Shown: positions 36,233 to 58,200 of the stretch, piece by piece | Layout of the letters: the number at the start of each line of letters is the position of its first letter | Position numbering within the stretch: position 1 is the first letter of the stretch | DNA from: Obrimoposthia wandeli | Lineage: Eukaryota | Assembly: GCA_977020255.1 (NCBI GenBank) | Contig: CDROCS010002657.1 | Span: forward strand, 248,001-312,000 | Length of the DNA: 64,000 nt | Reading direction: 5' to 3' | Translations under genes and position numbers: made by a program | The notes under the pieces: model-generated | Databases searched by the model: none | What the model was told of the DNA's origin: nothing | What the model saw: the letters and a program-made list of their open reading frames with translations, nothing else

Positions 36233-37060
36233 AGTAGGTAGATGTGACACTTCTGGAACAAAGCCCCCCCCTGAGGACAAGCTCAGGTCAAGTTGAGGAC
36301 AAAAAATTTTAAGGTCAAGTTGAGGTCACGGTGAGGTCAAGATGTAGGTCATGACCTCATGAGGTCATGACCCCCCCTATGCTTAGGAAAAATGTCTTTG
36401 TCCTGAAAGACACACATCAAGTAGGGGGATATTTTTTTTTGAGCATACCCCCCCCTTGAGCACAGTTTAAGGTCACGATGAGGACATGACCTCATGAGGT
36501 CAACTTAAGGTCACGGTGAGGACAAGATGTAGGTCATGACCTCATGAGGTCAAGTCAAGTTAAGGTCAATGTACTTTAAGGTCAACTTAAGGTCATGACG
36601 TCATGAGGACAACTTAAGGTCACGGTGAGGTCAAAAAGATTCTATTTTTAGTAACATACTTTAAATCTATATATATTTTTATCTAAAGGTGGTTTTAACA
36701 CCAATTTAACAAAATACATCTCGTGTGTGTGTTTTATAATTTATTTAAAATATCTACTTATAAAATAAAGTATTATATAATTTGATAATCATGTTTAAAC
36801 GTTCCTATATCTATCTAACAAAGACAGTCACGCATCTATATTGCAAATACTTGCATCTTTATGTAATCAATAGTAACATTTATTCTTATACATGTATATA
36901 TGTGTGTGAGTATCTAACAAAGACAGTCACCAATACCTACAAAGACAGTCACGTGTGTGTCTAACAAAGACAGTAATCAATACCTACAAAGACAGTCACG
37001 TGTGTCTAACAAAGACAATCATCAATACCTACAAAGACGTACTGCATCTATATTGCAAAA
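36233..37060 (+). repeat. Left TIR of the Polinton
   Basis: Matches the reverse complement of 51717-52422 at the tip and in the inner AT-rich part; the middle AGGTCA array differs. The inner limit is approximate. Confidence 0.85.
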
Positions 37061-37170
37061 ACCTGCAAATTTATGTAAATAATTTTTAAAATAAAGACAA
37101 GTATTTCTAACATATATATTCCTTAAAATCACAAAGGAGAATAAAAATATGTACAACACATATAAAAAGT

Positions 37171-40100
37171 TTATACAACCTCGTCCGGGTATAAAAAGTG
37201 ACCATAGGCGACTGAACGGTTTTTCTCCACCCACTTGCGCTTATCATCACTACTGCTTAAGGCAATTTTACTTAACCTTACAGTAAAAAGTTGATGATTT
37301 AGCGAGCTTATACGTTGTTGTTGTACACGCTCGCTAACGCCACTCTTATAGACAGCTAAGTAATTAGAGTGCCTAATACTCGTCTGTCGGAGACTAATAC
37401 CTTTCGCTCTCATCTGAGATTCACCTTCTGTAGTCTCTAGGCTATATGATTTTGGTCGTAGAAAAATCCCTTGCCTATAACTAAATAATCCCTTAATATC
37501 ATCTTTAAATTTTCCTATCGCTGTATTAAGCGTCGTATAAAGCGGATGGGTTTTTGGAAATTTCGAGGTATCCAACAGTCCATCAGCAATCATAGCAGGT
37601 AACAGTGATTCTTGAACATTGACATTATTACACTTCAAGAAAAATCTATCAGTGTCACCCGCTATAATTCTAATGTCGCAGTTAAATTGAACTCGATATT
37701 TCTCCAACTGCTCATATTGTAGCTCATACATACGAAGTTTGCTTAAATCTAATACCTCCTGGCCCATGTAACTAGGACGATCCAAAACAATATTTTCCTT
37801 ATCCAGTAAAACTGCAATAAGGTCCGTATCGATTTCGATTGTCCTACGAAAGTGGGCTTTACTGCAATAGGTAACCAGCTTCTGTGGAGTATTACAAATC
37901 CGGAGGTTAATTCTTTTCATCAGATTCTCAATGAGTTTTCCAAATAAAGAATTCACCTTCAGTTTGTAGTAATCCCGCTCGAAATCTGTTGTAACCGCAG
38001 CTCTTTTGAGAGAATTATCCTCAATATATTTTGAAAAAACATTAGTTTGTTCAAACTGTATTGCTCTATATACAAAATCTACCTTAGCACCAAGTCTAAC
38101 GTACATTTGTAGCAATCTAGAATGCACAACATAATGTTTCTTAGGGTAATGTGTTAATAACAATTTTTCAGTCTTACACCCTGGTGGACTCTGTTTAATT
38201 GGAGCAAGGGGAAGATCGTCGAATTTATTATGAAGCTCGTTGGGAATGGATAAATCTATTTCCAATAAATGAGCGAAGCGACTACAGGATAAATCTACTG
38301 ATTTTAAGCTGGAAATAATATTCCCCAACTCTAACCGATCAGTCACCCAGGAAAAGTTACCACAAGGTAAAAACTGGGACATAGCCCACCCGTACAAATT
38401 ATTTACATCAATGTACAAATGTTCTGTACCATTGATGGCGTCCACTATGGTGTTCATTAACAAATGTCATACCCCCGCATATCCCGGGCCGGAAGAGTCG
38501 GTACATTTCTGGATCCTGTATTAGCTCGACTCGCACAACGGGAGCAGAAGAAGAAGCCGGACGAAGCAGGGATTTGAAAGCACTCGCGAAATTCAGTCCT
38601 GGAAATAAAAACATTTATTAAAATCATTGTGAAAATCATTGTGAAAATCATTACTTTGAAAATCATCTATCTAACAAAGACAGTCACGCATCTATATTGC
38701 AAATACTTGCATCTTTATGCAATCAATAGTAACAAGTACTACATTTATTCTTATACATGTATATATATATATGTGTTAGTGTCTAAAATTAGAAAAAAAT
38801 AGAAAAATACAAACCAGGGATGGAGAAGAAATTGAGTGGCTCCAATCCATCGTCAGTAATGGCCTTGGTCCGGAATGCTGTAAACACGTATGCTAGAAGG
38901 TATACGTCTATCTTCATATAGACCAGCATATAGTCCCAGAGCGATGAGCAGCCGCTCTGAGTCCAGACCATCTTCGCCATTTCATATTGTGCTGGCTTGA
39001 TCTTCTCATCCCACTTTGGCGGTAAGCTGGTGATTGCGCGAAGAGCAGTCTCTGATACTGCCATATTGTATGGGAAGATTCCCTTGGCGCTCACCAGATG
39101 TTGCGGGAAGACCGAATGTGTAAGAGGAGTCACACCCAGGTTTTCCACAAGTTTTTCAAGTCTGCTGTTCAAAAATTGAAGGGAATCGATGAAACGTATA
39201 CAGACTCCTCCAATATACACCATCATAGCCTGGAATTTCTCTGTTGATTGAGGTATAACAGATACATTCCAGTCAGGAAACTTGCACGGTGCGTGCTTCA
39301 ATATGTGGTGCATATGTAACCCATAAGATTGTGAAAAATGACGGGAAAAGACCGATTGATTCTCCTTGATAAGTTGCATTTCGTATGCGCTGCTCCCAGG
39401 TATTCGCCAGTCATGTGATCGTGATCTCGAACTTTGTTTGTGAGTTTCTTCTTACACAGGTAACAGATTCTTGCTGCATTGAAACTCGATACCTGTTCCT
39501 GTGTGAGTTGTCGCATCACCTCGATCGCATGCTTCTTGTACCATGGGAGAACAACCTCTTTCGCCAAGTCCTCTAATTTCTGCAAAAAGTATACCACACA
39601 AGATTCCCCGGTAAAGACCGAGTAATCATGTGTATACCCTCTCGTGGCTGCAACGGGAGACATGAGCATACCGGCCGAGATTGGAAGCTGAATCTGATGG
39701 TGGATTCCATGCGGCGGTAGCACAGCCTCAAAGTCCGCGTAAACAGCAAAAGGTGGAGAAATCGTTTTCAAAAAGTCCTTAAACTCAATATGCTTCTCTG
39801 TAGGCATTGAATAAAGTGTTGTATGATCTAAATTCATCCTACAGAGCGGAACGTGTTTGGCGTAACTTATCGGACTACGGAATCCATGAAGACATTTATG
39901 GCACCAAGTACACCGAATGCAATTAGATACACCTTTGTTCCTATAATTAAGCAGCCTATTGAGTTTAGGAATACCGATATAATGAAAATTATCATTATTT
40001 TCTAAAAGGAGAAGATTGATTGGTTTAGCGTCCGGGTTTGTGGTCCTGTAAATCACATCCACATAGGGATTTTTGAAGATATCCCCATCTGTTTGCACAT

Positions 40101-40791
40101 TAGAGAACCTATTGAATGTAAATACGTTGATTGAGAGAGATGGATTCTTTCTCTCAAATCGCGGTATATTACATAGACGCATCGGCATCTCATTCTCATC
40201 AAAAACTAACTGACTCAAAAAGGCATCATATTGATTAACCCGATGAGGATTAGAGCGAAATACTTCACGGAAAAGTACAGATAAGATACTGTAAAGGAAG
40301 CAAAAAGCGTTTGAGTTCTGCACATTGATAACGCAATGTGAGAGTGCTAACTCAGATGGAGTAGGTATATAACTACTTCCCTGGAGATAGTTCATTGTTG
40401 TTTTAGTCACAACAAACGAAATCTCCAGGAAGCGGTTCACTACCCAATTACTACTACTTTGAGAATAATTCTCAATCTTCTTGTTGATCCCATCTACTCC
40501 CGCATCTATAAACCCCTCATCTATGGGGAGCCCTCTATTGGAAAAATTCCAAGCGCGTGTTTCTCCAATATTGGAAAATTCAACACGCACCCCGAATTGA
40601 ACCTTGCAAGTTGCAAACATGCTGACTGTGTCCCTTAAGCTAGTCAAAAGTGATACAGGAACTTGTAAATCGATGAGATTGTCATTAGAAACATCTAATG
40701 ACAATGTCTCAATCGTGCCCCGAAGACTAGTCTTACGCTTAACAGCATCAACCCTGAAAAACTTCGCAACATAGCTACCTGAAGTGGGCAT
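37171..40791 (-). pseudogene. polB: Protein-primed family B DNA polymerase with one intron (38599-38814) and two 1-nt frameshifts (~39316, ~38450)
   Basis: Exo motifs YADFE, FHNLMGY(D), YMKID; polymerase motifs YIDVNNLYG, KLKVNSLFGK, GDTDR (usually DTDS), PKSY, AKGI. Also an endonuclease VII-like CYLC...RDHDH...HTKCN segment and an N-terminal OTU-like Cys (FCFLY)/His (FHY) region. Confidence 0.95.
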
Positions 40792-40800
40792 AACACTTCT

Positions 40801-41242
40801 CTAACGGGTAGATGCTGGTAACGGCGCGGGGATCATACCAACTGGAGGAGGCATAACTGAAACCATTGGTGCAGCAGATGATGGTGAAGCAACTGGGGTA
40901 GTAACAGCAGCAGCAATTAAGGTAGCAATTGACGAAGCAGCAACAACTGGACCAGCAACCCGAGAAATAGTAGCAGATCTATTCTGAAAGATGGCCTTCT
41001 TGCCACGTTGCTGGAAATGACGAAGATGGACACGATGACGCGCCACAAACTCCGGCCAATCAATCTCCTCCGCGGAGAGACATACTGGACATACGTAGAA
41101 TTGTTGTCCTTTGAACTTCTGTCCAAAGTAGCTCTTCATTTTTCCGTCACATTCCTTGTGACTCTCCTCGAAGCATTCTTTGTTCATATTGCAATTCTAG
41201 AAAGAAATAAATTAGCTGAAAAAATAACAATAAACTTACCAT
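40801..41242 (-). CDS. Small Cys/His-rich Polinton protein with Pro/Ala/Ser-rich tail; probable 43-nt intron after the ATG
   Basis: ATG(41242-40)|GTAAGT...TTTCTAG|AAT TGC AAT ATG joins in frame with ORF 40801..41187; CPVC motif; TATATAAGC upstream. Confidence 0.65.
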
Positions 41243-41373
41243 TTTCAATTTCGTTTATAATAGGGGATTATTTGTTGATTGATGCTTGCTTATATACTAT
41301 TTTCGAGCTAGTATTAAGCCAATCAGATTCATACATTATTTAAACCAACCAGATTAATTTAAAACAGAATAGT

Positions 41374-41883
41374 TTACTGACAGATGTGAGTAGTTGAATT
41401 TTCATTAATATTTAAATAATCCAAACTAGCTGCAAAGCATTTCTTGTATGCACAATGCTCGCCATGTTTAATATATGGACAATTGATATTTGATGGATTT
41501 AATTGTTTTAATGTTTTCGAGTAATTTATCACTCTAAATTCAGGAAAATATTTATTGATTGTCTTTATTTTAGCTCCATTATTTTCATCCAAAACATAGA
41601 AAATTGATTTGGATACATCACAACAACGTTTTATTTCCTCAGTTATTTCTTGTATCTTGAAATAACTATTACCATCAACTAGTTTTAATCGATGGTAATG
41701 CTTAATGAGATATCTATTTATTTTTCTTGATTTTCTATTCATCATGTCCCATATGGGTTGCTTTTTAAAAACATAATGTTTGGGATAGAAGATTGCATCC
41801 ACATCCATTATACATAGTTCTTTTATTACAAATTCAGTATTATTATCAATAAAAGCTTCAAAATCAATAAAATAAACAGACAT
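41374..41883 (-). CDS. DEDD/DnaQ-like nuclease-fold protein with C-terminal Cys/His cluster
   Basis: N-terminal YFIDFEAF (D-x-E) followed by IKEL, and C-terminal CPYIKHGEHCAYKKC. Intact ORF of 169 aa. The fold call is motif-based only. Confidence 0.55.
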   Translation of the reverse strand: MSVYFIDFEAFIDNNTEFVIKELCIMDVDAIFYPKHYVFKKQPIWDMMNRKSRKINRYLIKHYHRLKLVDGNSYFKIQEITEEIKRCCDVSKSIFYVLDENNGAKIKTINKYFPEFRVINYSKTLKQLNPSNINCPYIKHGEHCAYKKCFAASLDYLNINENSTTHICQ

Positions 41884-41920
41884 TTTTTATAGCAATAATT
41901 TTGTTTGATATTGTTTATAT

Positions 41921-42298
41921 CTATTGTTTATGCTTTAACCAAAGCAGACATAGTTGTCCACATGAGTGCGTTAAAACATTTTGATAATGTTTCTTACTAA
42001 AATGTACTTTCTTTCCAGAATCAAGTACTGTAGATACTAATTTAGAAGGGTAATATATCCCAAAGGGGTCAAAAACAAAGATTTCATTTTCTTTAACATG
42101 TATTGCAATCCAATGTTCACCACGCAAATTAGATGAATGTGTATTGATTACATATCCACCTAGTCGAGTCAAAGAGGGGATGTGATCAAGACTGTAGACT
42201 CCATTGAAATGCGAACCGAGTAGTTTTCTTCCGCTTTTTGTTATCTCGTCCGAACTAGAATATATATTAATTAATAAATTCAAACTGATTTACTTCAT
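41921..42298 (-). pseudogene. Adenain/Ulp1-like maturation cysteine protease
   Basis: GEHWIA (His), FDPFG (Asp), YQ...SCGQLC (Gln/Cys). The in-frame ATG at 42298 is followed by TAA at codon 3. Confidence 0.9.
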
Positions 42299-42327
42299 TT
42301 ATATCTTCTTTATTGTTTTCATTCTGT

Positions 42328-43537
42328 TTATACTAGTACTGTTCCTCCCTTGGTAATTTGAACCTCAGAATCGAATACTCCATAGATTATAATATTAGTA
42401 GGATGTTCAAGTGCTTTTGAAAACTTGATTTCTACTTTCAAATTTCCCTGTTTAGGGATTTGAGCTTGATTAATATCGAAATCAGGAGAGAGAACAAATG
42501 TGAACAGTGTATACTTGTCCTTGAAATCAGTCATTGAAATTCAAATATTAGCATCCTTATCCAAATGACCAAGATTTCTAATTAAAGATTGCACATAAGA
42601 AAACACATAATCATCGTTTTCAAAGTCATTCGTATAAGATTCTTGATAATCAATATTTCGTGCAAGTTTAATTGAACTCACATTCATGTGTCCAAATTGA
42701 GAAACCTCATTTTTAGACTCACCTCCATAGGTAGAAGTGTTTTGGAAAGCAATTAAAACAAAGTTTGGAAGTTGCATATCACCAAAAATCTGATCCCGTA
42801 GGGATAGCGTTAGAAACAAGATTAGTTTTTCTAATAGGATAACATGCATTTTGCTTCTCCAACCCTATTCGATGTGCAACGAGTACAGATGGTTCCACCT
42901 TTACTCTTCGAACCAGCAGTTTTGCTTCCGTAATCTCAATTGCGGTTTTAATAGTATCGTCGTAAACAACACTAAAACCTACTGGATTTCTCTTCATTCG
43001 AATATGTGCACTTACACCGAGTAAAAGATACTTTGGTTGCTTAAAGAAATCCAACTGGAGACTCCCACAAAGTGACAATACTTTAGACTTTGCAATCGAA
43101 GCAGTTCTTCTTTTTTCATCATTGTCAAACCCAATTGCATCAAGATTAATCAATTTCGTATCATTACCGTAATTCAGTAATGTTTCAATCATTGCTTTAT
43201 GAGTGTAGCTAGTATTATTTCCCTCAACTTTCACATTATTGAGACTGAGAATCACATCCTTGAAAAGAGTATGCAACATGTAATTAGCTGATTTGATATC
43301 CATACCATCATCCAAATCACCTCCACCTTCCTTTGTAACTTTCAATTTAACGAGAAATAAACTATCATTCAAATCAAGATATTGAGTATTGGATCAATTA
43401 ATATTGAATTCTAAATCCGGAGAAGATGTCCCGTTAACCGTATTTGTCGGACATATTTCTTCAAAACTAGCACTATCAACCACAACCTGAGGTATAGGTT
43501 TATCAAATATACACAATTCAGTTTTAGCACAACTCAT
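42328..43537 (-). pseudogene. Major capsid protein (double jelly-roll)
   Basis: MSCAKTELCIFDKP...LEFNIN*SNTQYLDL...FKDVILSLN...AMIETLL...AKLLVRRV...FTFVLSPD...IYG. In-frame TGA at ~43395 and ~42541, and a frameshift at ~42790. Confidence 0.9.
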
Positions 43538-43899
43538 TACTTAAAAATTGTTCCACCTAGTTTCAAACGTTTGTTTATACCCGATGCTTTAGATGTTTTC
43601 TTACGTTTATAACCACTTCCCTTTTGAGTTTTCTTTTTCAAAAATTCAGCTAGACTTGGTGAAATTTCATTCACCTGATCCAAGGCTGCATCCTTTAGTG
43701 TGGGAAGAAATTTCTCATCACTTGACAAGTATTTTGATCCAACATTAGCAATAAATTTCCCGAGTCGCTTGAGTAGTGGGAAAGCAAAGCGACCTAAAAC
43801 CTTCATCCATCCTGATCCATACTGTTTTCCCGCAAAATAAGGCAAATCACCTCCTTGCATCGGTTTACTATACGCATCGATTATACTTGAATCAATCAT
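43537..43899 (-). CDS. Small basic virion protein with amphipathic helix (between minor and major capsid genes)
   Basis: QGG...FAGKQYGSGWMKVLGRFAFPLLKRLGKFIANVG...QKGSG; position and Gly motifs as seen in Polinton structural modules. Confidence 0.7.
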   Translation of the reverse strand: MIDSSIIDAYSKPMQGGDLPYFAGKQYGSGWMKVLGRFAFPLLKRLGKFIANVGSKYLSSDEKFLPTLKDAALDQVNEISPSLAEFLKKKTQKGSGYKRKKTSKASGINKRLKLGGTIFK

Positions 43900-44918
43900 A
43901 ATTTACGAAAATGAACCGTTAAACTTGTTTTAGCTCCGTAAGCAAATGTAATTAATCTTCCAGAATCATTACGTATATTAACTTAAATATTGTTTATAGA
44001 AGAAGAACTCACGGGAATATACTTTGGATTTTCAATTGGAATATGTATAACATCACCATACTTGTGCTTTTCCTGTTGAACCCAAATTGCTTTAATTAAG
44101 AGAAGTTTCCTTCCTCCTACGAATATTGGTTCGGTAATACTCGTGTAGATATAAATCTGATTATATGCATTAGTCATTTTAGGAAAAATCTTTGCTTTGA
44201 AAACCTCATTTTTATTTTCAAATTCATTTTCATCAAAACCGATAATTGAGGCTAATTATTTATCCATGATGATTTTATCAATATTGGATTTCAATTTGAA
44301 ATGAATCAATTTATTAACTAGTTTAAAGTTTTCAAATACATTTGGTAACACTGTTTTAAAATGTTTACACATACTTTTGCTATCGGCAAAAAGAAAATCA
44401 TTGGGAACTGAATATATTTTCCTCTCGCGTTTAACGAATCTGTTTTTTATCTTGAATGTAATTATCGGATACTTGACATGATTATCCATAATTTGTGAAA
44501 CTGCATGATTTCCTTTTTCAACTTTAGACGGAAATCCATATTGTTCTGCAACAATTTCATCATTAAAAATTATTTCAAAATTATCCCCTTTTTCCATAAT
44601 TTGAATTTGATTCTCTTTATTTAAATAGATTGTGAAATCATCGCCTGACTTAATACGAGCCAAATCCATTTGACCCTTATCAAATAGTGAAGTCACATCA
44701 GTTACTTTATCAGCTTCACGTTGGGTAATATATTCAATCTCAGTTTCACTTTGAATAGATAGAGGAGAGTAATTGAAAGAAAATTCCGTAAGAGCAGCTT
44801 CCCAAGCACCAGGTAAATTGATTGAGCTTTGATAATCAATACTAAAACTATTAGCAGTATTATTCGGCTGATTTAATGGCGAACCATTACTTGGTAATAC
44901 AACATACGTTGAGTTCAT
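43896..44918 (-). pseudogene. Minor capsid (penton-like) protein
   Basis: YVVLPSN...NNTANSF...INLPGAWEAALTEF...IYIYTSITEP...YIPV...I*VNIRNDSGRLITF...LTVHFRK. In-frame TAA at ~44256 and ~43983. Confidence 0.85.
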
Positions 44919-45886
44919 TCTATTTGAGAAGCTAATATCCAACTAGGTTCAGTATATCCATGCCACTTAACATGATATTGTTTATGCTTTCCTCTACCTT
45001 TTGTCTCTAAAATTTCTTGGATTCTATATACATTCGGTTTCTCAGACAAGACTTGTAATTCCTCATGATAAAATTTACCCGTGATTACATTATTGGTTTC
45101 ATCCTCAATGAAATACATTACCGGCACACGTTTATTATCAATTTTAGTTATACGAAATACTTCATCGCTCCAATTCTCTTTGAAATTCTTTATAAAAGGA
45201 GTAGTACTAATTTGAGAAATACGTACATAATCACCAACTTTATACTTGGGTTTCCGTGCAACTTGACTTTGGTTACGGCGTTGCCAAATTTCCATAGCAT
45301 TCTCATCTGTAACATCAACGGGTCTCTTTCGGTCTAATGATGAGTGTTCACTATGATTGTATGCATGTATTATTTGAGGTAAAACAGTAACCCAGGACTT
45401 ATTTCCCTGCTTTGTGAAATACTTTTTCAAACGATCTCTCAATGTTCGATTAAAACGTTCAACTAAAGCGGCTTTATATTGGGAAAATACTGAGTAATGA
45501 TTAATATTATGTTTTTTCAATAGTGTTTCAACATGTTTATTATAAAACTCCTTTCCACTATCCGTTTGGAAATTTCTTGGTTTTATTTCTTTAATCAAAA
45601 GCTTCATTGCGGCTAAAACATAGGTACCAGACTTAGACTTTAATGGAATAGCTCGCGCGAATCTGCTAAAGACATCAACACAAGTTAAAATATATCAATA
45701 TCCGTTGTTAATACTAGCATACGGAATCATTTCCATCAAATCTGCTTGCCATAAATCATTCGGGCCGCTCGTTTTGTATGATCTCGTTGGGAACCGACGT
45801 CTCATTGGTTTGTTTAAGCTGTAAGCTAATTTTGAAACCCCTTTGTAACCAACGGGGTGACTTGGATCGAACCATATTTTCTCCAT
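44915..45886 (-). pseudogene. Retroviral-like DDE integrase with C-terminal chromodomain
   Basis: WQADL, QTDSGKEF, VERFNRTL, and YHVKWHGY...SW (chromodomain). One in-frame TGA at ~45695. Confidence 0.95.
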
Positions 45887-45983
45887 TGCAGTAAGACGAT
45901 TTGATTTTTAAATTATATTTAGGAATAGATGGAAGTGATCCCATATATAAATTCATATTATTGATTCGAATTTATGTTTATAA

Positions 45984-46406
45984 TCATCGGTTTATTAGTC
46001 TACTAGCAAGTGCACCAACTATTGAGCTAATAATTGGTACGAGAAATCCTAAAAATCCACCACTTTGCTTATAAAGCAACTTACGTTTACCGATTCGTGT
46101 TTTGGCGTGAAACAAAGCAAGTAGAGGTTTCTTATGCCGATTCAGGTTAGCCTTGACAATTATTTTACCAGAAACTATTTTCTGTATCATATTAAGTAAA
46201 TCATCAATTACAAAAGTAGGGAATGATTTAAGAATAGCTGGGCGGCGAATAGCAGGTGCACGCATGAGAAAATTGAAATAGGCAATACTCCTAGATTTCT
46301 TAACAACAGTTCTTTTCGATTTTTGAGCAACCATTTTCCTTGCACTTAAAACTGATTTAATCAATTTTTTAACTTCGGGTTTAACAGTTTCCTTTTTAAA
46401 ATTCAT
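45984..46406 (-). CDS. Basic core/virion protein
   Basis: Lys/Arg-rich, ending KRKLLYKQSGGFLGFLVPIISSIVG, a typical Polinton small structural protein tail. Confidence 0.7.
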   Translation of the reverse strand: MNFKKETVKPEVKKLIKSVLSARKMVAQKSKRTVVKKSRSIAYFNFLMRAPAIRRPAILKSFPTFVIDDLLNMIQKIVSGKIIVKANLNRHKKPLLALFHAKTRIGKRKLLYKQSGGFLGFLVPIISSIVGALASRLINR

Positions 46407-47054
46407 CTTCTCAAAACTGGTTTCTTTGTTTGTTTATAGACGGTTATTCCCGATGGATTGAATACATCAGTTCTAACTCTAAAGTCATCGGGACAATCTT
46501 GAGTAAAAATCAATAAAAATGTATCCATGAGGAATAGTAGTTGCATCTTGAAATGAATCAATTAAAAACTTTCTATTATTCGGGTAAGCTTGTCTTGAAA
46601 CAAAATCAACAATCGTCTGATCACGTGGATTCTTGAAGAGAACAAGATAATGTACATTTAAATTACGAGTTCTATGGTTCCCTCCTTGATGAAATAGATT
46701 TTGTGTGATGAAAATAACAGTTACTTCCCGATGTCGTGCTATTTTAGTGAATAAATTATTGAAATCACTCTCTTTATTTGCTTCTTGATATAAATCATCA
46801 ATAACAATAACATCATGTCGTTGTAATCGCTCAGACCAATTATCATCGAATCCATTAATGACTTTTATATTTTTGATTTTCTTAAACTCTTTACTGGTTA
46901 AACCAGCTTCTCCATCTCCTCCCTGCTTCCAATATATTTTATTAAACTTAAAGGTAAAGTATTTATTATTTTGTAGTAATTTACATACAAAATGTGTTTT
47001 CCCACTACCACTAGGACCTACAATCTGAAAAACTGAATTATTTTCTAAGTTCAT
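46403..47054 (-). pseudogene. FtsK/HerA-type packaging ATPase
   Basis: GPSGSGKT, VIVIDDL, ARH...ITQNLF, LFKNPRD. An extra T in a T-run at ~46505 shifts the frame; the corrected tail DFTQDCPDDFRVRTDVF...LRR* ends at 46403. Confidence 0.95.
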
Positions 47055-47097
47055 ATTAAAAATATTAGATTATCGGAATAATGTTTATAAGACAAAA

Positions 47098-47382
47098 CTA
47101 TTTAAAATATTTTATTACGAAACATCCAGCAACAAACAATAAAAAACTCTTCTTGTAGAAAAAGCTCCTTTTCTCTTCTTTCTTTGCACATTCTTTCTTC
47201 TGATTGTATCCATGAATGAGAAGATTGACTGCCTTGTCATGCACCATTCTTCTTACGTGCTCCTCCAGGGGTAGATTTGAGACATCAATGAGTTGCAGGA
47301 CATCTGGTTCTATGACATTCTTCGAGATGAAGCTCTTCACCGCCTTGTCAACATCTTGCTTGAAATAGTTTGGAGTAGACAT
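47098..47382 (-). CDS. Orphan ~94-aa helical protein with C-terminal hydrophobic tail flanked by lysines
   Basis: The ATG at 47382 sits 30 nt after TATATAAGC; the protein ends FFYKKSFLLFVAGCFVIKYFK. Confidence 0.65.
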   Translation of the reverse strand: MSTPNYFKQDVDKAVKSFISKNVIEPDVLQLIDVSNLPLEEHVRRMVHDKAVNLLIHGYNQKKECAKKEEKRSFFYKKSFLLFVAGCFVIKYFK

Positions 47383-47443
47383 AATGATGATGAAGAAGTA
47401 AAAAGTAATCTGCTTATATACTATACATCTGAAATCTGATTGG

Positions 47444-47580
47444 TTAATAAAGACTAATAAAGACACTGACTAATAAAAACACTGACTAATAAAGACACAA
47501 AGACACTGACTAATAAAGACACTGATTAATAAAAACACTGATTAATAAATACACTGATTAAAGATAAAGACGAATAAAAT
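47444..47580. repeat. ~16-bp tandem repeat (GACACTGACTAATAAA), ~7-8 degenerate copies
   Basis: Directly visible between the 47098 ORF promoter and the phosphatase stop codon. Confidence 0.85.
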
Positions 47581-48306
47581 TTACACATGATAACGATTAA
47601 AAATACGTATTTGATGAAGCATAGCTTCATTAGGAGCAGCAATAGTCCGTTTAGCTTTAACAAGATTCGAAGCAGCAGTAACACCAATCGAATGAGATAA
47701 AAATGCAATAACAATGCAAGCAGCATGTAAACTACCATAATGACTACATACTAAAATCTTACCACCATTTTCGATAGTTTCTTTAATTATATTATTAGTC
47801 TGTTTATAATACTTCATTATTGTTTCTCCTAATTTTGAGTTTACAAAGACAGAAGTATATTTTAATTTCTTATAAGATATTTTATCCAGTATAGATGTAT
47901 TGATTACATGAGTGAAATTGGAGTTCAAAAGATTAGTTTCATCAAACCCATCTCGATAATTATCAATATATAATTGATTTACTAAAATCTCACTCATCAC
48001 GGTTTTGTTTAACTTTTCTACATTATGTTGAGTAAATCTAGCACTAAACAAGCTATCAAAAAGATGGGTCATGTGGTTCATTTCCATACTCGAAGCATGA
48101 GCTATTATGGGTTCCATAAAAGCCAAAGCATTTAAAAAATCTATCCGTCTCTTATCTTCAATAATTGGATCTATAATAATTTCTTCTTCTATCGTCACTT
48201 CATCAATAGTTTCTTCTCTTCTTATAACTGTTGTTGTTGTTGCTGGTGATGATGTTGTTGCTGGCGATGATGTTGCGGCTTCTGGTGCTGAATTGATTTT
48301 CTCCAT
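47581..48306 (-). CDS. Dual-specificity phosphatase-fold protein, catalytically dead
   Basis: MSEILVNQLYI...THVIN...GGKILV-CSHYGSLHA-ACIVIAFL...VKAKR...PN...HQ. The HCxxGxxRS loop is replaced. Confidence 0.85.
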   Translation of the reverse strand: MEKINSAPEAATSSPATTSSPATTTTVIRREETIDEVTIEEEIIIDPIIEDKRRIDFLNALAFMEPIIAHASSMEMNHMTHLFDSLFSARFTQHNVEKLNKTVMSEILVNQLYIDNYRDGFDETNLLNSNFTHVINTSILDKISYKKLKYTSVFVNSKLGETIMKYYKQTNNIIKETIENGGKILVCSHYGSLHAACIVIAFLSHSIGVTAASNLVKAKRTIAAPNEAMLHQIRIFNRYHV

Positions 48307-48626
48307 TTTATCAATTCCCAGTCAATTTAGTCTTATATATATATTAAACGAGGTTTAATTTCATAGGAGCATCAGTTTCATCATATGATTTGATTGGAGT
48401 ATTATTCAACCTTTCCATTGTACTTAACAACTCATGTAAATGTATTTGATGACGTAACCTAAAGAGTTAAATAAACTACATATAAATATTACTCATGATT
48501 ATTTTTCCTAATTAAAGCATTGAGAATAACTGAAGCAAGATCTTTTAATGCATCCTGAACCTCTTTACATTCAATAATTTCATTCATTTTATGATAAAGC
48601 AAATCAAATATTGTTTATAACCCATG

Positions 48627-48845
48627 AAAAATCTATTTTTAGAGCACATTACAACTATTTGCAACATTACAACGTTTGCAACTATTTGCAAGTAATGACA
48701 TGTGATGTCTCTAAGAGAAATCTATTTTTAGACCACATTACAACTATTTGCAACATTACAACGTTTGCAACTATTTGCAAGTAATGACATGTGATGTCTT
48801 TGTCTCTAAGAGAAATCTATTTTTAGACCACATTACGACTATTTG
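48627..48845. repeat. ~90-bp internal repeat, 2.3 tandem copies; a further copy at 50467-50537
   Basis: AAATCTATTTTTAGACCACATTACAACTATTTGCAAC...GCAAGTAATGACATGTGATGTCT. Confidence 0.9.
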
Positions 48846-49363
48846 GTTTAGGAAATAAATAACACAAGTGTGGAGATCTATATTAAATAAAATACATTCA
48901 ATCAGATACTCATAGTTTAAAGATTTAAAACCAAGTATCATAATCTTCCCGCTAGCAAAAATGTTCACGCATAGGGGATTGTATTTGATGTATCGAAGTC
49001 CCGGGAAGATTTCTGGCTCGTAAACAGCTTCCGATCCCATACTCTTGCTCATCTTGTTTAGGTTTATTGATGTTTCTAGCTTGCTGCTGAGACTGATTGA
49101 TTGCATTCTTTCGATTTTTATATCAAAAGGAAGACTGCTTTCATCCCGCACTGTTTTGCAACCCATTATTCTGCATGTACCTAAATTATAATTATATATA
49201 AATGTAAAAATAAATTACCAGATTTGAAAATGATAATAGTGTAACCTTCACACTTGAGTCGATACTGATGAGGCTTCGAAGTCCGAAATGGTAAGTGTTG
49301 AATGTTACTTACAACCATTCCCTTGTAATTAATATTCACTAATTTGATATTGTGAAGTAGCAT
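48771..49363 (-). CDS. TATA-binding-protein-like (two TBP repeats), two exons 49363-49219 and 49180-48771
   Basis: Splicing the 38-nt GT-AG intron gives IIFKSG|TCRIMGCK, parallel to the repeat-2 segment NIFASGKIMILGFK. YEPEIFPGLRY matches TBP YEPELFPGLIY. Confidence 0.88.
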
Positions 49364-49426
49364 TTCTGATTATTATAAACTGATTTCTTCTATTTATACT
49401 ATTTGAACATCTATTTTTAGATTTGT

Positions 49427-50423
49427 TTAATTGCCTATGCTATGAAATCTAATATTTCTTACTCGTCTAATGATAATTGTCTTGCAATATGGACATGTAA
49501 TAAAACGATCTGAACATTTAATACACGTGTTTAAGTGACCACATGGTAAAAATGCCACGGAAATCGCATCGCTCATGCAAACAACACATTCGGGATTTGG
49601 TAAGAGGTACTCAAGATAATTTATCCGATGTGTTGGTTCAGATTTTATTTCTAAAGACCTTAAATCCGTTATAAACTCATATATAGAATCATATTTGTTA
49701 CCGAATGTTTTAAACCTATTAACTAAAACGGCTTTGATTCTATCATGACTGTAATCACGTTTCAGCAAAACTATTTGACGAGTTTCCATCTGAGCATCAA
49801 TGTCATCATTACTAATATGATATTCAACAATACATCCGTTCTTGATTCCCATACTAGATGCTTTACAATCTCGAGTATGAAAGATAAGACATAGTATCAA
49901 TAAGGTCAAGTCGGGGTACTGCTTTCCGACAGAAACAACATCGATAAGAATCATTCCAAATATATACATGATCGAAAATCGATAATGTAGGTATTTCAAT
50001 ATCATTAGAATAATTATTGCGTGCAATAACAACTTTATCCATTGGAGTTGTATCAAAATCAATTTGGGTGGTGCTGGAATCAATTATTGGTACGTTTGAA
50101 ACATTCATTTTCAAAACAAACGGACATCTTGGGAAAAAGAGCTGATGCTGTTTCATTGGTTTCAGATAGTACTCCCATCCCGATATTCCTCCCTGACAGT
50201 AAATACACTTTACATTATCTTTCGAATCATCGTGCTTGTAAAATCCTGCTTTTGCTAAAGCTTTCTTATCGGCTAAACCAGTAAACTTTGTTTGTAACGA
50301 TTCTAATCTTCTTTCTTCATATATCATATTTTCATTTATTCTTGAAATATTATCAAAACGCCGTCGTCTAATGGTGAGTTCTCCGTTTTCTGAAACATAA
50401 TGTGCAATAAATTTAGTAGTCAT
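49427..50423 (-). pseudogene. iap: Inhibitor of apoptosis (BIR, UBA-like, RING), one frameshift at ~49885
   Basis: RLES...LAKAGFY...DNVKCIYCQGGISGWE...PMKQHQLFFPRCPFV (BIR); CVVCM...FLPCGHLNTCIKC...CPYC (RING). Confidence 0.92.
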
Positions 50424-50554
50424 AACAAAATTGAATGATGAAATTGTCTAGCTTATATAGTAAGTGAAAATCTATTTTTAGACCACATTACAACTATTTG
50501 CAACTATTTGCAAGTAATGACATGTGATGTCTTTGTCTTAGTATAAACAATATT

Positions 50555-50782
50555 TTGATAATGATTTTATTGAAAATGGTTAATCAAAATAATCAAAATA
50601 ATGAAAGTAGAGCTAGTACATATAAAGGTTCCGGTAGTAATTTATATTCTAATATGAATTATAATAGAAATAATCAGAGAGAAAATATTAATCCATCAAG
50701 TCAAACAATAACAAGTCCTACGCGCTTAACCGAAGAACGTGAGCCCTTTAAGGATATGACTAATACTAGACGATTTTCATAA
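50555..50782 (+). CDS. Small Asn-rich orphan ORF
   Basis: Divergent from iap, with a TATAAA just upstream; low complexity, no recognisable motif. Confidence 0.35.
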   Translation: MIMILLKMVNQNNQNNESRASTYKGSGSNLYSNMNYNRNNQRENINPSSQTITSPTRLTEEREPFKDMTNTRRFS

Positions 50783-50895
50783 ACAAGAATGTTAACCAAT
50801 TGAGACTAATCGATTTTCATAAACAAGAATATCGACTAATTAGAATCGACCTTTAGAGGATAAACAATTGAATATTTCAATTTATAATTGTCAAT

Positions 50896-51276
50896 ATGAA
50901 TTTCGAAAAGCTATATCAACCTATGCATACATATTATGGATATGAGATGCACTTTTTGAAGAAAGCTCATAACTATAATTTTATTTTCCCCGTCAACATT
51001 GAGCCGCTTAAATTTGATTTTGAAATATCAAATTTGACTTCTGTGGATAAAGAGAGAATCAATATTCAATTTGGAATCAACTATGCGCTTCAGGAAAACA
51101 AATTCGTAATCAAAGGATCAACTGCCACTTTCAAGCATGAGAATGGAACAATATACGAAGCACCTCCTCCTAAGCTAGAATGGATTATCTCAATCAGAAT
51201 TCAAGGATGCAAGATCGGGTCCAGTGGATTGGAAACTCCGATATGGAAAATAATTGATGCTGTTAGAGTTGACTAA
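50896..51276 (+). CDS. Polinton accessory protein, predicted beta-rich (possibly OB-fold ssDNA-binding)
   Basis: Intact 126-aa ORF with alternating hydrophobic pattern, ending ISIRIQGCKIG...PIWKIIDA. The function is a guess. Confidence 0.55.
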   Translation: MNFEKLYQPMHTYYGYEMHFLKKAHNYNFIFPVNIEPLKFDFEISNLTSVDKERINIQFGINYALQENKFVIKGSTATFKHENGTIYEAPPPKLEWIISIRIQGCKIGSSGLETPIWKIIDAVRVD

Positions 51277-51340
51277 TAAATTTTTGTGTCTTTATTTGTA
51301 TTATTTTATATATATAAACAATAGTGATACTTTAATATTT

Positions 51341-51712
51341 ATTATGAAAATGACTAAAAAACCTACTAAATCATTAAAGTCGAAAAAGGTTAAAAAGACT
51401 ATGAGTAAAAAGACTATGAGTAAAAAGAAAATCATGGAGGGTTTGGGTATTCATATGATGGCAGCAAATCTTTTAGGTAGATGGTTTGGCGGAGTTGATA
51501 AAAAAGCTATAAAGCACAAAAAGAATGTGGATTACATGAGAGGTATACAAAATCAGAAACGAGTGCAAATAGGAGATGGTATACAAAAAGGGGATGGTAT
51601 GCTTGATATTTTTGTAAAATTAGATAAACTTACAAAAGCATTTGAAAAGGATCCTAGTGCCTATCTTGGTCCAAAACTAAACTTTTTAGCAAACCGACCA
51701 AAAACTTTGTAA
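51341..51712 (+). CDS. Lys-rich basic protein with QxGxG motifs
   Basis: MKMTKKPTKSLKSKKVKK...QIGDGIQKGDG. The start is inferred downstream of a TATATAAA at ~51310; the ORF track starts at 51254. Confidence 0.6.
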   Translation: MMKMTKKPTKSLKSKKVKKTMSKKTMSKKKIMEGLGIHMMAANLLGRWFGGVDKKAIKHKKNVDYMRGIQNQKRVQIGDGIQKGDGMLDIFVKLDKLTKAFEKDPSAYLGPKLNFLANRPKTL

Positions 51713-51716
51713 TTAC

Positions 51717-52422
51717 ATTGCAATATAGATGCAGTACGTCTTTGTTAGACACTCACACATATATATATATATATACATGTATAAGAATAAATGTTACTAT
51801 TAATTACATAAAAATGCAAGTATTTGCAATGTAGATGCGTGACTGTCTTTGTTAGATAGATATAAGAACGTCTAAACATGATTATCAAATTATATAATAC
51901 TTTATTTTATAAGTAGATAGTTTAATTTAGTTTAAATATATTTTTCAAATTATATAATACTTTATTTTATAAGTAGATAATTTAATTTAAATTATAAAAC
52001 ACACACACACGAGATGTCTTTTGGTTAATTGATCTTTTTGACCTCGCCGTGACCTTAAAGTACATTGTCCTCATGACGTCATGACCTTAAGTTGACCTTA
52101 AAGTACATTGACCTTAACTTGATCTTAACTTGCCTTGACCTCATGACCTACATCTTGTCCTCATCGTGACCTCAAGTTGTCCTCATGACTTTAAATAAAA
52201 AATCATGTGTACTCGGGAGAAATTTGACCTACATCTGTCATAAAAAATTTGAGTTCAAAAATTTTCGCGCTAATTTCAAAAATTTTGACCTATATTTCAA
52301 ATTTTTCGCGGAAATTTCAAAATTTGACCTAAATTTTTTGTCCTCATCAAAAAATTTGACCTAGATTTTTGACTTGTCCTCAGGGGGTGGGCTTTGTTCC
52401 AGAAGTGCCACATCTACCTACT
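51717..52422 (-). repeat. Right TIR of the Polinton
   Basis: Inverted counterpart of 36233-37060, with an extra internal duplication (about 51880-51990) and a different TGACCT sub-array. Confidence 0.85.
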
Positions 52423-52948: not shown

Positions 52949-55290
52949 TCCAAAAATGCAACGTGCAACAAATGCATGAAAACCGGACACTTCTTCAGCG
53001 CCTATCTGTCGAGAAAGAAAGATACAATCAACGTAGCGACATATCTGGCAAATGCAGTCATCAAATCCCCAACAGGACTCCAAAAAGCAATAGGACAAAT
53101 AAAGATCCTCGACGGGTACCACGATGCACTAATCAACATAGGAAGCGAACTCAGTTTCATCGACGGAAACATAGTTAAGTTCATCAAATTATCAAGCCAA
53201 ATATGCCAATATCTCTGGCATCCAACAACAATAAAACAATCCCTACAACGTTCTGTTTCATGGATTTTGAACTAGACAATGTGCCGTATAGAAATCAACG
53301 ATTGAACGTACTGGATAACCTATGTACCCCAGTAATCCTTGGCCAAGACTTTATGAAAAAAGATTTAATCAATAACCTTCAAATTTGACGGATAGATTCA
53401 ACCGCTGACATTAGCATCCATCTTACCAATACATTTTGAACCGCCACGAATCTTCGAGAACATGAGAGACGACGTATTTTCCATCGCAACCAAATCAAGA
53501 ACCTACTGCTATTCAGACCTGAACTTCATAAAACTGGAAGTCGAATAATTATTAAAGGGTGGTATCATCGAGAAATCATCGTCCTCATGGAGAACTCAAG
53601 TACTCGTCACAAACAGGAACATGAAGAAGCGTCTAATTATCGACTACTCACAGACGATCAACAAATTCAGCATTTTAGACGCGTACCCATTACCTAACAT
53701 GGACGAACTAGTGCGAGAAATATCAAAAAACGAATACTTTAGCAAACTGGACCTGCGATCAGCCTACCACCAGGTACCTCTGCACCCAAACGACAAAATA
53801 TTCATGGCTTTCCAAGCCTCCGGTAACTTATATCAGTTCAGACGCCTACCATTTGGAGTTACTAATGCCGTCAGCGCTTTCCAACGGACTATGAACAACA
53901 TTATCGACGATAACAATCTACGCTTATTTAGATGATATAATCATCGTCGGAACATCACTAGAAGATCAAGACGAAAACGTCAATAAATTCCTTGAAGTAG
54001 TTAAAAAAATCCAAATCTCGCTCAACATGAATAAATGATTGCTTCAAAAAATGTCCATAAATGTTCTTGGATATCAAATCGAAGAGAATTCAATGCGCCC
54101 TGATCCAGAAAGGTTAAAACCAATTACTAATTACCCATTACCAACCAATACAAAGGAATTGCAGAGACTACGTGGACTCCTGAGCTATTACGCCAAATGG
54201 ATACCATCCTTTTCAGACAAAATCCAACCTCTTCTGAAAGCCACATTTCCTCTGCCCATGTCAGCAAAAACTGCACTCTTTCAATTGAAAAAGGAAATTT
54301 CATCATACACACTATCTCAATCAAACTCAATCTCCCAATTGAAATTCAAACGGATGCTCCAAAAACTGCCTTATCAGGAGTCATGCAGCAAGAACCTATT
54401 GCATTCGTTTCCAGAACCCTGAACTCGAGCAAAGAAAGATTATCTTCAATCGAGAAAGAAGCTATGGCGATCGTCGAAAGTGTGCGAAAATGGAGATCAA
54501 TATTGATCACGAACCACTTTTCAATCAAAACTGACCAAAGGCGCTCTCGTTTATCTTCAATCAAAAAAGAAATGGAAAAACTAAAAATGACAAAATTCTT
54601 CGATAAAGAATTGAGTTGTCCTTATATTCCTACAACGTAACACACATCCCAGGCGAACTCAATCTAGCTACAAACGCAATGTCCAGATGCAACACGATCA
54701 AATCCAAAACGGTTCTTAAACTCCATCAAGCGTTGGGCCATCCAGGAATTACGAGGCTCTGGCATTTCATCAAAAGCAAAAACCTCCCATTGTCTATAAA
54801 AGAAGTTAAAGACGTTTGCGAAAATTGCAAAACATGCACAATTCTCAAACCACAATAGTACCGACCCGAGATGTCACAGCTAATAAAATTGATGCGGCCC
54901 TTTGAAAGATTGAGTATCGACTTCAAAGGTCCGCTACCGCAATCCGGCCCTTACTGATACCTCCTAGTGATGATAGACAAATATTCCAGATTCCAGTTAG
55001 CCTACCACTGCAAAAACATGGAAGCACACACAGTAAAAACGTGCTTCCTCGATCTCCACATTCGGGTGTCCTTCGTCAATTCACACCGATCGAGGTACCC
55101 AATTTATGAATCAAGAAGTCAGGGAATTCTTAACGAAGCACAACGTCGCCCAAACCCGAACAACACCATATCATCCATCAGGAAATGGTCAAGTAGAGCG
55201 AATAATGGGACACTCTAGCAAACTATATCTTTAACTCTACACAACAGAAACCTAACCCCATCTTCATGGAAAGAGGTTTTGGAATGAAGA
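52949..55290 (+). pseudogene. Gypsy pol (protease, RT, RNase H, integrase), fragmented
   Basis: ALINIGS (protease site with D>N), YPLPNMDEL, FSKLDLRSAYHQ, LPFGVTNA, YLDD, IEKEAMAIV, H-x3-GH...CENC, IDFKGPLP, PYHPSGNG. Many stops and frameshifts. Confidence 0.9.
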
Positions 55291-58200
55291 AGTCAGAGAA
55301 ACCAACGAAATACGAAAATCATCTAGGCAACGACAAGCTCCAACCAAATTCATCGATTATGTAGACCAGTCAAATCTTAGTGACGGAGAATGTGATGAAC
55401 TTTGTTTTAATATCTAGTCTTCTAGATAATAGCACTTTTCAAATTTAGTTGAATAAAACTTGTTATTAGTTTCACTTCATTTTTAACCGAGTTTGTTTAT
55501 AGTTTATAGGATTTTTTAAAATTATAATAATATATATTTTCTAAAATCGATTCAACAGTGTATTGGTAATCCAAATTTCTCAATCCCAATATCATTACTT
55601 TACCATTGACAAACATTTACATATAGCTGTGTAAACTTCAAATATCGGAGTACTGGAAACATTTCAGATTCAAACATTCATTCTTCTTTCATCTTTTCAC
55701 TAATTATATAAAGATTTATTTCTATTTGACATTGGCTGAAAGGTGATTGAAGTTATTGTGTTAATTTTTATTTCCTAACGTTGGATTTATATCATTTGGC
55801 AGTGTTTTGCACCCCACAACGCGACAATTTTCTCGAAAAGCTGATTATGAAAATGAAACAATACTAACCCGAAAGAAAAATAACAACTATAAAATCATCA
55901 AACTTGTTCACATATTGTCTCGGCTTACACTCATCGAATAATAAGTATGAAATATCGTCTTCAATTCTTCCTTTATAATTTATATTTACGAGATTCAATA
56001 GACTAAAATTGTTTTCTGTAAATTCTGCTTTATAGATGTATTTACTTGTTATTTTTTGCTCATTTCCTGTTAATGTCTTGCAAACCGTTTATAATTGGAT
56101 TAGGGAAATATATCATATTTATTTAAATAAAATCTAATAATCTAGTTATACCAGTTAGATGTATGTCTTGGTTTGAAATTTTAACAAATTTTTTATCGAT
56201 TAGTTTAAAATATTTTAGAATTCTACGTACCTGATTATGTTTATGAAGGAAATTATGTTAAGATTGAAGCAAACCACAGTCTTATTTTATAGGTGCCCTT
56301 TCTTATTTGATTGGTTCACGCCAAGAAGGAGAACTGTGGAGTATTTAAAACCGGATTTACAGATAATTTTTTGATGCCGATTTTAACGTACAAACTTTGA
56401 AACAGGCGAAAACACCTTTGGATATATTCAATCTAACATTAGAAATATGGGTAATTTGGATTAGAATATAAACAATGGCGTATCACTGGATGATTTCAAA
56501 ACAATTATCCATTTTTCACTTTCGTTTTAATCCCTGACTTTGATATTACACAAAACCACTCAGTCTTGACATCAAGTTTCACAAGTCATTAACAGTCCCG
56601 AAAAATGTACTGATTTACGGGATTCTTGATTCTGAGTTTGAAATAACTAAAGGTCGACGTGTGATTGTATAAATTGAATTTTGAATTTTTGTTATAAGAT
56701 TTTTATTAACCAAAAGTACTGTTCAGATGAATAAAATAACTAGTTTCCTAATCGAATCGCGATTTAAGGGTGTAAAAAATCCCAACATTAACGCCTGGTG
56801 GATATATTGCTAATATGCATACCTCAAATCTGCCTGGAAAACACTGGATTGCGCTATTCATGAGACGGAATTCTGTACATGTGTATGATCCTCTTGTAGT
56901 ATACTATCCGGGAAAACTTATCAAGCATGTAGAGTCTCAAAGAAAACATGTATATTATAACAAAATCCGTTCGCAAAACCCACTGACTACTAATTGCGGT
57001 CCACTATGTATCTTATGGGTGGATGATCAAACCATATAATTGTCAAACCTTTTTATTTGTGTTGATTGGTAATAAAAATTTGTATTCAAAATCGCATGTG
57101 TTTTGTATATAAATTTAACTACCTAGTCGAAATTAATTTTTTTTATAAATAAATTTTGAATTTTGATCATTTAAAAAATAGATTTAAAATCTACTTATCA
57201 AGAGAAAATTAATGGCATGAAATTTTTTTTTTAATTCGGGATCAAACGGTATGACAAACGATTATGAAAAATATCATAATTGGTTATTTAACCGTAATTA
57301 ACCTTTGGATTATGTGATACATGTGTAGCAACTACTTAATAAAGTGTCTTTATGACACAGTCCTTATTCGTCATAAAGAAAGTACACGTGTGTATTTGTG
57401 AGGGCAGTGTTTAAATTTTATAGATAATAATTATCCCGACTGTGATAGCTGCTCGGTAACGAGGGACATTCTATCTCTTGAAATGGAGTCCTAGAGTAAG
57501 CCAAGTAAATTTAGAGGTTACCCGTTACTATTTAAGCCAGGAACAACTGTTGGGTCACTTGTAAATTCTATAGAAAATTTTAATGTAAACGAAATATACT
57601 CGGATTATGAATATATTCCATTTTAAAATATTGTAATCAACTTAAGAAAAGTAAAAATTAGAATATTGATTTAAGTAAACTAAAAACAGACGGTAAGCGC
57701 GGTAAACGATTTCGTCAGAAGCTGTGTAGGTTGAGAAAACTGCCAGCTGATATAACAATATTTGCAAATTTATTTGGGTCTTGCAAACCAGGACTGAAAA
57801 TTATCAATCTATTAAAAATGTCATATAAAGGCTTCAGGACTGATCAAATTTATTTTAACGTAACGGTATGCCCGTGGAAAGGGTTTCTACTAAAAGAAAT
57901 GTTTTAAATGAGAGGACTATTATCCATGTATACCATAAACTTCGAGGAGGAAGTAACTTATATACATTATGCAAATATTGCACTAACGTAAATCATGGAA
58001 TTGAATGTCATAGAGTATTGGTTAAAATTATAATTTTAGAAATGGTTTTATTTGTCCTCAATGTGATGTATTGATTATCATATTTTTTAATGATCATAAG
58101 TATCATCTGACGTATTTTACGTTGAAAATATCAGCGTATAAACGTAAGAAATGGCTTGCTCCTAAAAAACAGTAAAATAGTAAAAACTAATATTTTACCT

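Follow-up and report, generated by a model that had tools for sequence, protein, structure and literature searches.

A reduced, Polinton-specific TBP with a rebuilt DNA face and the YATAAAC box of virion genes: a candidate late-promoter system

TRF2/TBPL1 is a divergent form of TBP with an altered DNA face. In beta- and gammaherpesviruses, late promoters carry TATT boxes, and the TBP mimic acts there as part of a viral complex of six members (PMC4893493). According to PMC7221094, large DNA viruses almost without exception carry a TFIIB gene of their own, the TFIIB-binding glutamates vary in these viruses, with about 40% kept at one site, and helix H2 of TBP carries three of the signature residues for the binding of TFIIA, Mot1, TAF1, and Brf. 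With regard to DNA recognition, the eukaryotic consensus TATAWAWR (degenerate form, YWTAWADN) rules out C at position 7 (PMC1935006), and positions 194, 203, and 205 are those giving yeast TBPm3 its altered specificity (PMC1636458). By the title of its entry, wild-type TBP was crystallised on the C(-25) TATA variant, which has C at position 7 (1qn3), and this structure suggests that host TBP is able to bind such a box. For adintoviruses, Polintons, and Mavericks, the available text of PMC8502044 and its preprint carries the figure-legend label "TBP" and holds no analysis of the protein, its intron, or its promoter; no mention of TBP was found in one supplement of that paper. Our literature search for a Polinton TBP or a YATAAAC box returned only this figure label; it did not extend to bioRxiv supplements or to journals behind a subscription, and annotations may exist there.

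We analyzed a 64,000-nucleotide stretch of DNA (the window), in which a first-pass annotation had placed a divergent, intron-containing TBP homolog within a Polinton. The assignment to a Polinton was borne out, since the gene lies in an element of about 16 kb (36233–52422, given without strand) that has terminal inverted repeats and 6-bp GGCCTA target duplications and carries PolB, integrase, ATPase, capsid, and protease genes. This copy is decayed: the protein-primed DNA polymerase B (PolB) is split into three ORFs (37171–40791, minus strand), the capsid gene is spread over two frames, and both ATPase and integrase are shortened. Pfam DNA_pol_B_2 was detected on two of the PolB pieces, and in relatives a single ORF matches all three. 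PolB and the ATPase scored above the Pfam cut-off, the integrase match was weak, and the protease was identified through relatives that match Pfam Peptidase_C5. The putative major capsid gene, which has no Pfam match, is named from its position and conservation, and the putative minor capsid gene from its position and homology cluster; the core-protein name of a 120-aa ORF is similarly putative. A 169-aa ORF (41374–41883), also without a Pfam match, is presumably exonuclease-like, as judged from a motif. The window also holds a Tc1/mariner-type transposase (23207–24139, minus strand) and LTR-retroelement reverse transcriptase fragments (53621–54640, plus strand) in the flanks of the element, together with a broken Polinton at about 55.5–63 kb with capsid, protease, and PolB pieces. 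The latter contains a decayed second TBP-like gene (55612–55992, minus strand), which matches the copy of another Polinton family (family 3, below) adjoining the window.

The TBP-like gene is on the minus strand and comprises exon 1 (49219–49363, 145 nt), encoding the reduced N-terminal lobe, a predicted 38-nt GT-AG intron (49181–49218) interrupting, in phase 1, the Gly codon that follows the retained N-lobe Phe, and exon 2 (48771–49180, 410 nt), encoding the last N-lobe strand, a short linker replacing helix H2, the whole C-terminal lobe, and a variable tail. Joining the exons restores the frame and gives 185 codons including the stop, that is, a protein of 184 amino acids, in agreement with the first-pass proposal that two ORF fragments and the intron yield a product of about this length. 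Exon 2 matched the Pfam TBP family (PF00352) with an E value of 1e-11 and 45 bits (curated cut-off, 22.9) as well as solved TBPs in the PDB. Exon 1 alone found no match in Pfam or the PDB. In pairwise alignment, it is 35–37% identical to residues 2–45 of the intronless relatives P0003 and P0001; the alignment stops at the junction, and both relatives continue uninterrupted from the exon-1 part into the exon-2 match. Two separate stretches of the intronless relatives match PF00352. The description of repeat 2 as conserved and repeat 1 as shortened and diverged, with exon 1 homologous to repeat 1, is upheld, the N-lobe having lost H2.

Searches with the ATPase and the capsid led to two other Polinton families in the same genome (families 2 and 3). 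At the same codon and phase, these carry GT-AG introns 35–39 nt long (six copies), and their intron sequences are unrelated to the 38-nt intron despite the shared position. The segment is 38 nt long in 24 of 29 exon-2 copies, the donor pattern being unmatched in the remaining five. The junction of the intronless relatives, the introns of families 2 and 3, and the constant segment length indicate that the 38-nt segment is probably spliced out, and its identity as a spliceosomal intron is well supported by these comparisons. An ancestral in-frame loop was considered in place of an intron and was ruled out: read-through copies with a 39-nt segment (L039–L041) are a minority (0.3–7% of depth), and the 39-nt form of the intron in family 2 holds in-frame stops. 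A search for the intron pattern across 56 metagenome loci gave no match. An intron common to three families suggests that nuclear, spliceosome-dependent expression was retained as the families diverged. Regions upstream of SSB-like and other small genes (L043–L080) resemble short GT-AG introns, and other Polinton genes may be spliced too. On the host side, the TBP gene has its own short GT-AG intron (47 nt, counted by eye) and the TFIIB gene is split into exons; the host TBPs comprise two paralogs arranged head to head (L031/L032), two TRF-like genes (L033, L034), and a further TBP-like gene (L035/L036).

Exon 2 is present in at least 150 copies in the genome, the others being 95–96% identical to that of the window, and it encodes 112–138 residues between copies (120 in 19 of 29). 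A tandem array of 89-bp repeats (48629–48845) overlaps the last approximately 25 codons of the gene, as had been noticed earlier, and the native stop was suspected to be lost. Any such loss would leave the fold unaffected: the TBP fold ends upstream of the array, the repeat-derived tail lies outside the fold, and, with the exon-2 length also varying among copies, no domain is lost. WD40 matches to the tail were dismissed as low-scoring repeats.

The Polinton TBP family comprises at least 172 clusters at E values up to 1e-15, and among the 120 clusters listed of these 172, every source is metagenomic. We collected 57 metagenome loci and left out one weak, GC-rich match (L099). A Polinton hallmark gene was found in 23 of the remaining 56 loci and some gene of the window element in 38; among the loci of at least 4.5 kb, 10 of 12 contained a hallmark gene. 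Neither the viral contigs, searched with the TBP family, the ATPase, and the capsid, nor the phage records yielded a match. Trees were built from 55 and 41 proteins, and in these the family occupied one side of a 100/100 branch, with the host proteins (L031–L034) and archaeal TBPs on the opposite side; the trees are unrooted and built without giant-virus TBPs, and long-branch effects are possible. The phylogenetic comparison suggested in the first-pass annotation separates the family from host TBP and TRF-like proteins. Longer TBP forms in other Polintons (L091, L097, and L116) keep more of the N-lobe and carry the same residue swaps. The dN/dS ratio was 0.12–0.38 in 15 of 17 pairs of at least 68% identity drawn from 31 intronless genes, the pairs not being independent; two near-identical pairs gave 0 and 1.1. 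Judged by these ratios, the family is under purifying selection.

The AlphaFold2 model of the relative P0009, computed with a 66-row alignment, had a pLDDT of 96.8 and displayed a two-lobe TBP saddle, as predicted for a TBP homolog. Its best structural matches were TBPs (yeast TBP: Z, 13.6; rmsd, 2.5; 149 aligned residues), TBPs of large dsDNA viruses matched structurally at 10–19% identity, and the Atlas name for P0009 is TBP. The exon 2 of the window, folded alone and without an alignment, reached a pLDDT of 53, too low for use. In the P0009 model, the N-lobe strands are kept, helix H1 is a stub, helix H2, which in canonical eukaryotic TBP bears the basic patch for TFIIA, Mot1, TAF1, and Brf, is absent, and no long helix separates strand 5 of the N-lobe from the C-lobe. 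The spacing from the N-lobe to the C-lobe has a median of 51 residues in the relatives, compared with what we take to be 64 residues in yeast TBP.

Residues were mapped in 165 full-length relatives using yeast numbering, which beyond the structural anchor positions we partly presume; for the N-lobe, the mapping depends on anchors plus a single structural range, which makes it less certain. The kept residues are N69 (97%), F116 (99%), E186 (97%), E188 (99%), F190 (99%), P191 (96%), and F207 (100%), in addition to K120 and K211, all kept sites falling in the range of 81–100%. The acidic loop binding TFIIB reads YEPEIFP in the window protein, the hydrophobic residue after E188 is conserved across the relatives, and the acidic stirrup is thereby retained, at 97% for E186 and 99% for E188. 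As for the intercalating Phe pairs, three of the four residues are kept (99–100%), but the F99 site, located by anchor mapping, is Pro in 98%. The DNA face carries the swaps V71N (96%), F99P (98%), V122R (99%), T124M (100%), N159S (95%), I194R (96%), V203C (98%), and L205N (100%), with Thr or Ser at the V161 position, and the DNA contacts T124, N159, R196, and T215 are lost. The conserved strands had earlier been read as altered to VNIN and MQSI. In VNIN, the next DNA-facing Val after the Asn is indeed changed, but the Asn itself (equivalent to yeast N69) is kept, and the Met of MQSI is a variant at the level of copies, L041 having IQS. The fixation of the DNA-face swaps across the relatives speaks for selection on a new surface and against decay.

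In an unbiased word count, ATAAAC was the top word upstream of clustered ORFs, occurring in 74 of 175 regions against 10 expected. In the window element, each virion-module gene is preceded by one YATAAAC box, all on the minus strand: at 47083–47089, 35 nt upstream of the packaging ATPase (46485–47054); at 46432–46438, 32 nt upstream of a 140-aa basic ORF (45984–46406); at 45976–45982, upstream of the integrase region (ORF 44915–45607, shortened here); at 44980–44986, 68 nt upstream of the putative minor capsid ORF (44256–44918); at 43992–43998, 99 nt upstream of the 120-aa putative core-protein ORF (43537–43899); at 43573–43579, 42 nt upstream of the putative major capsid gene (42334–43537, two frames); at 42326–42332, upstream of the protease-like region (41936–42253); and at 41913–41919, 36 nt upstream of the exonuclease-like ORF. 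The whole window contains 53 YATAAAC sites, compared with 36 plus or minus 6 in shuffles.

Among 57 sequences that served for both motif discovery and counting, with start codons called mechanically, YATAAAC lay within 150 nt upstream of 56 of 67 virion-module genes after removal of near-duplicates: ATPase, 12/14; basic ORF, 9/10; integrase, 8/10; major capsid, 9/11; minor capsid, 8/10; core, 7/7; and protease, 3/5. The box was at −32 to −37 in 10 cases of the ATPase gene. The pattern was repeated in families 2 and 3, whose sequences were outside motif discovery. TBP genes had YATAAAC upstream in only 2 of 41 cases, and 14 had TATA with an initiator-like motif; in three SSB-like clusters the box was found in 0/7, 3/16, and 2/3, six members of the 0/7 cluster carrying TATA and an initiator. 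A PolB count of 0/8 was set aside because of fragmentary ORF starts. The last base of the motif mattered: the share lying no more than 150 nt from a gene start was 102 of 210 for YATAAAC, 9 of 122 for YATAAAG, 44 of 263 for YATAAAT, and 43 of 300 for YATAAAA. Some boxes fall within the coding sequence of the upstream gene, and these could be held by protein constraint. The likely target is YATAAAC rather than the TATATAAG suggested in the first-pass annotation; the element has four TATATAAG sites, of which three agree with the host consensus and are placed 33–38 nt upstream of accessory genes, namely those for the inhibitor of apoptosis (IAP), the phosphatase-like protein, and a 94-aa product.

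A second Polinton clade on G001 contigs provided a control. Its TBP is full-length (183–188 aa) with near-canonical DNA contacts: F99 and T124 are retained, as are N159 and T215 in the majority of members; the gene sits near the protease end of the virion cassette (L170–L173, L118, L119, and L167). This TBP branches apart from the reduced family and may be a separate acquisition. A hand count on six contigs found YATAAAC upstream of only 1 of 30 genes in the same seven classes; L177 (a duplicate of L119), L173 (without such a gene), and L164 (from another assembly) were left out. The difference from the elements with the reduced TBP gave a Fisher P of 1e-14, which is overstated because genes are not independent, and the control amounts to a single phylogenetic contrast, as it comprises one clade from one assembly. 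Genes of the control clade abut tightly and may be expressed differently. One long-form element (L116, L164) has AATAAAC in place of YATAAAC. ATPase and capsid queries for a TBP-less Polinton in the present genome returned TBP-carrying families, and elements that initially seemed TBP-less proved to be members of the clade with full-length TBP.

The remaining genes near the TBP-like gene are as follows. A dual-specificity phosphatase-like gene (47581–48306, minus strand) has the active site SHYGSLHA here and GHYGSLHA in L040 and L041; these presumably lack the canonical phosphatase Cys and Arg spacing, and the product is likely a pseudophosphatase. The IAP gene (49427–50423, minus strand) consists of overlapping BIR and RING ORFs, and its box is TATATAAG in the window element and YATAAAC in family 2. 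An ORF of an unassigned family (50896–51276, plus strand), which we take to be SSB-like from a motif, forms with two similar clusters the commonest neighbors of the TBP gene (19, 7, and 7 loci); the Atlas gave it no name above 0.8. In L129 and L130, the TBP-phosphatase block is inverted and duplicated around the virion cassette, and an inverted spacing of about 8 kb recurs on several contigs. Pfam scans of the 30 window ORFs and 117 of 240 neighbor ORFs found no TFIIB (PF00382), and the scans of window and neighbor ORFs likewise found none of the herpesvirus-type late-complex partner families.

We propose that this Polinton-specific, shrunken TBP with a rebuilt DNA face is probably the element's own late-promoter factor. 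Early on, the host's own TBP and Pol II would transcribe the TBP-like gene by way of an ordinary TATA box; the host-type TATAAATA (49391–49398, minus strand), 35 nt upstream of the start codon, is the putative early promoter, and the host spliceosome would remove the 38-nt intron. The mini-TBP would then bind YATAAAC(A), whose position-7 C falls outside the host TATA consensus. Because no TFIIB gene was found in the element, we suggest that the kept glutamates would recruit host TFIIB, and a protein without H2 would escape control by Mot1, TAF1, and TFIIA. The packaging, capsid, protease, and integrase genes would subsequently be transcribed as a late class. The changes at specificity positions and the missing helix make the mini-TBP and its box a candidate orthogonal TBP-promoter pair. 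Whether the two form a one-protein switch in a two-stage viral transcription program run by a large group of Polintons, with the TFIIB dock as the only host control surface left, we put at roughly even odds. The box would mark virion genes, and early and late classes would be open to transcript mapping. Whether Polintons have a true viral life cycle has long been an open question, and a dedicated late factor with its box would provide a direct approach to it.

The first-pass annotation had offered either a dedicated initiation factor or a decoy. The former gains support from the family-wide swaps and from a box that tracks the virion genes. As a decoy, the acidic loop would bind host TFIIB (or Brf) and dampen host transcription, with host TBP reading YATAAAC as a weak TATA. 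The conservation of E186, E188, and the next hydrophobic residue would fit, as would the loss of one intercalating Phe along with T124, N159, R196, and T215, the host-modulating neighbors (IAP and phosphatase-like), and the crystallization of wild-type TBP on DNA with C at position 7 (1qn3, by its title). The DNA face of a decoy should drift, yet the swaps are 95–100% invariant, and the box covaries with the remodelled TBP. We regard this reading as unlikely. Decoying of TFIIA, Mot1, and TAF1 is unlikely on the model as well, their surface being deleted; that of TFIIA, which had been proposed specifically, is weakened by the missing N-lobe helix H2.

A late-promoter factor might also lack specificity of its own, another factor, encoded by the element or the host, picking the box while the mini-TBP serves as a TFIIB docking platform, as in the herpesvirus complex. 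EBV BcRF1 binds TATA and TATT equally in vitro and needs five partners (PMC4893493), and several ORFs of the element have no known function. However, no cluster of such ORFs accompanies the TBP gene in all contexts, as far as short contigs allow, and the swaps sit at known specificity positions; we consider this account quite unlikely. In a replication role, the protein would act together with the SSB-like gene to assist protein-primed replication, either by bending or melting the AT-rich termini or through binding to single-stranded DNA. This would fit the SSB-like gene being the commonest neighbor, and the divergent Giardia TBP prefers single-stranded DNA (PMC12209930). Such a role has no need of the TFIIB loop, though, the box sits upstream of genes rather than at termini, and a shared early-gene block explains the adjacency equally; we judge it very improbable. 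Finally, a captured host TBP in decay with a chance 38-nt insertion would suit the broken PolB, capsid, ATPase, and integrase frames of this copy, but for the family as a whole it is largely refuted, and scarcely credible here, given the 100/100 branch separating the family from host TBP and TRF-like proteins, the purifying selection in relatives, and the different GT-AG introns at one codon in three families, one with in-frame stops. The late-promoter factor remains our preferred reading.

Compared with the known systems, the Polinton protein shares with cellular TBP (PF00352; yeast Spt15, human, and archaeal) the two-lobe saddle, F116, F190, F207, N69, P191, and the TFIIB glutamates. It differs in its core of about 150 rather than 180 residues, in lacking the N-lobe H2 with a reduced H1, in the replacement of F99 by Pro, in the invariant DNA-face swaps, and in its own long branch. 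As regards TRF2/TBPL1-type paralogs, the host proteins L033 and L034, for which TRF-like is our own label, keep full length and group with cellular TBPs and apart from the Polinton family. With the TBPs of nucleocytoviruses and other large dsDNA viruses it shares the viral occurrence of the fold and the loss of the N-lobe regulatory signature (PMC7221094), whereas for the Polinton the scans turned up no TFIIB gene, its glutamates are conserved at 97–99%, and helix H2 itself is gone. The herpesvirus mimics (EBV BcRF1, KSHV ORF24, and HCMV UL87) resemble it by analogy, as early TBP-fold proteins with a non-canonical box upstream of structural genes (PMC4893493). They are 577–1005 aa long with about 10% identity to TBP, whereas the Polinton protein is about 150–184 aa and clearly TBP-derived, and the Polinton box deviates at position 7 and the herpesvirus TATT at position 4. 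The TATT system would be the closest working analogy, without the Polinton protein belonging to it. The conserved intron, the residue map, and the control clade are new here. The family offers a natural experiment on TBP, a saddle of 150 residues without the TFIIA/Mot1/TAF1 helix and with changes fixed at specificity positions. If our proposal is true, intermediate forms of the reduction persist in other Polintons, and no viral late-transcription system known so far would be smaller than the mini-TBP with its box, which would have arisen independently of those of herpesviruses and giant viruses.
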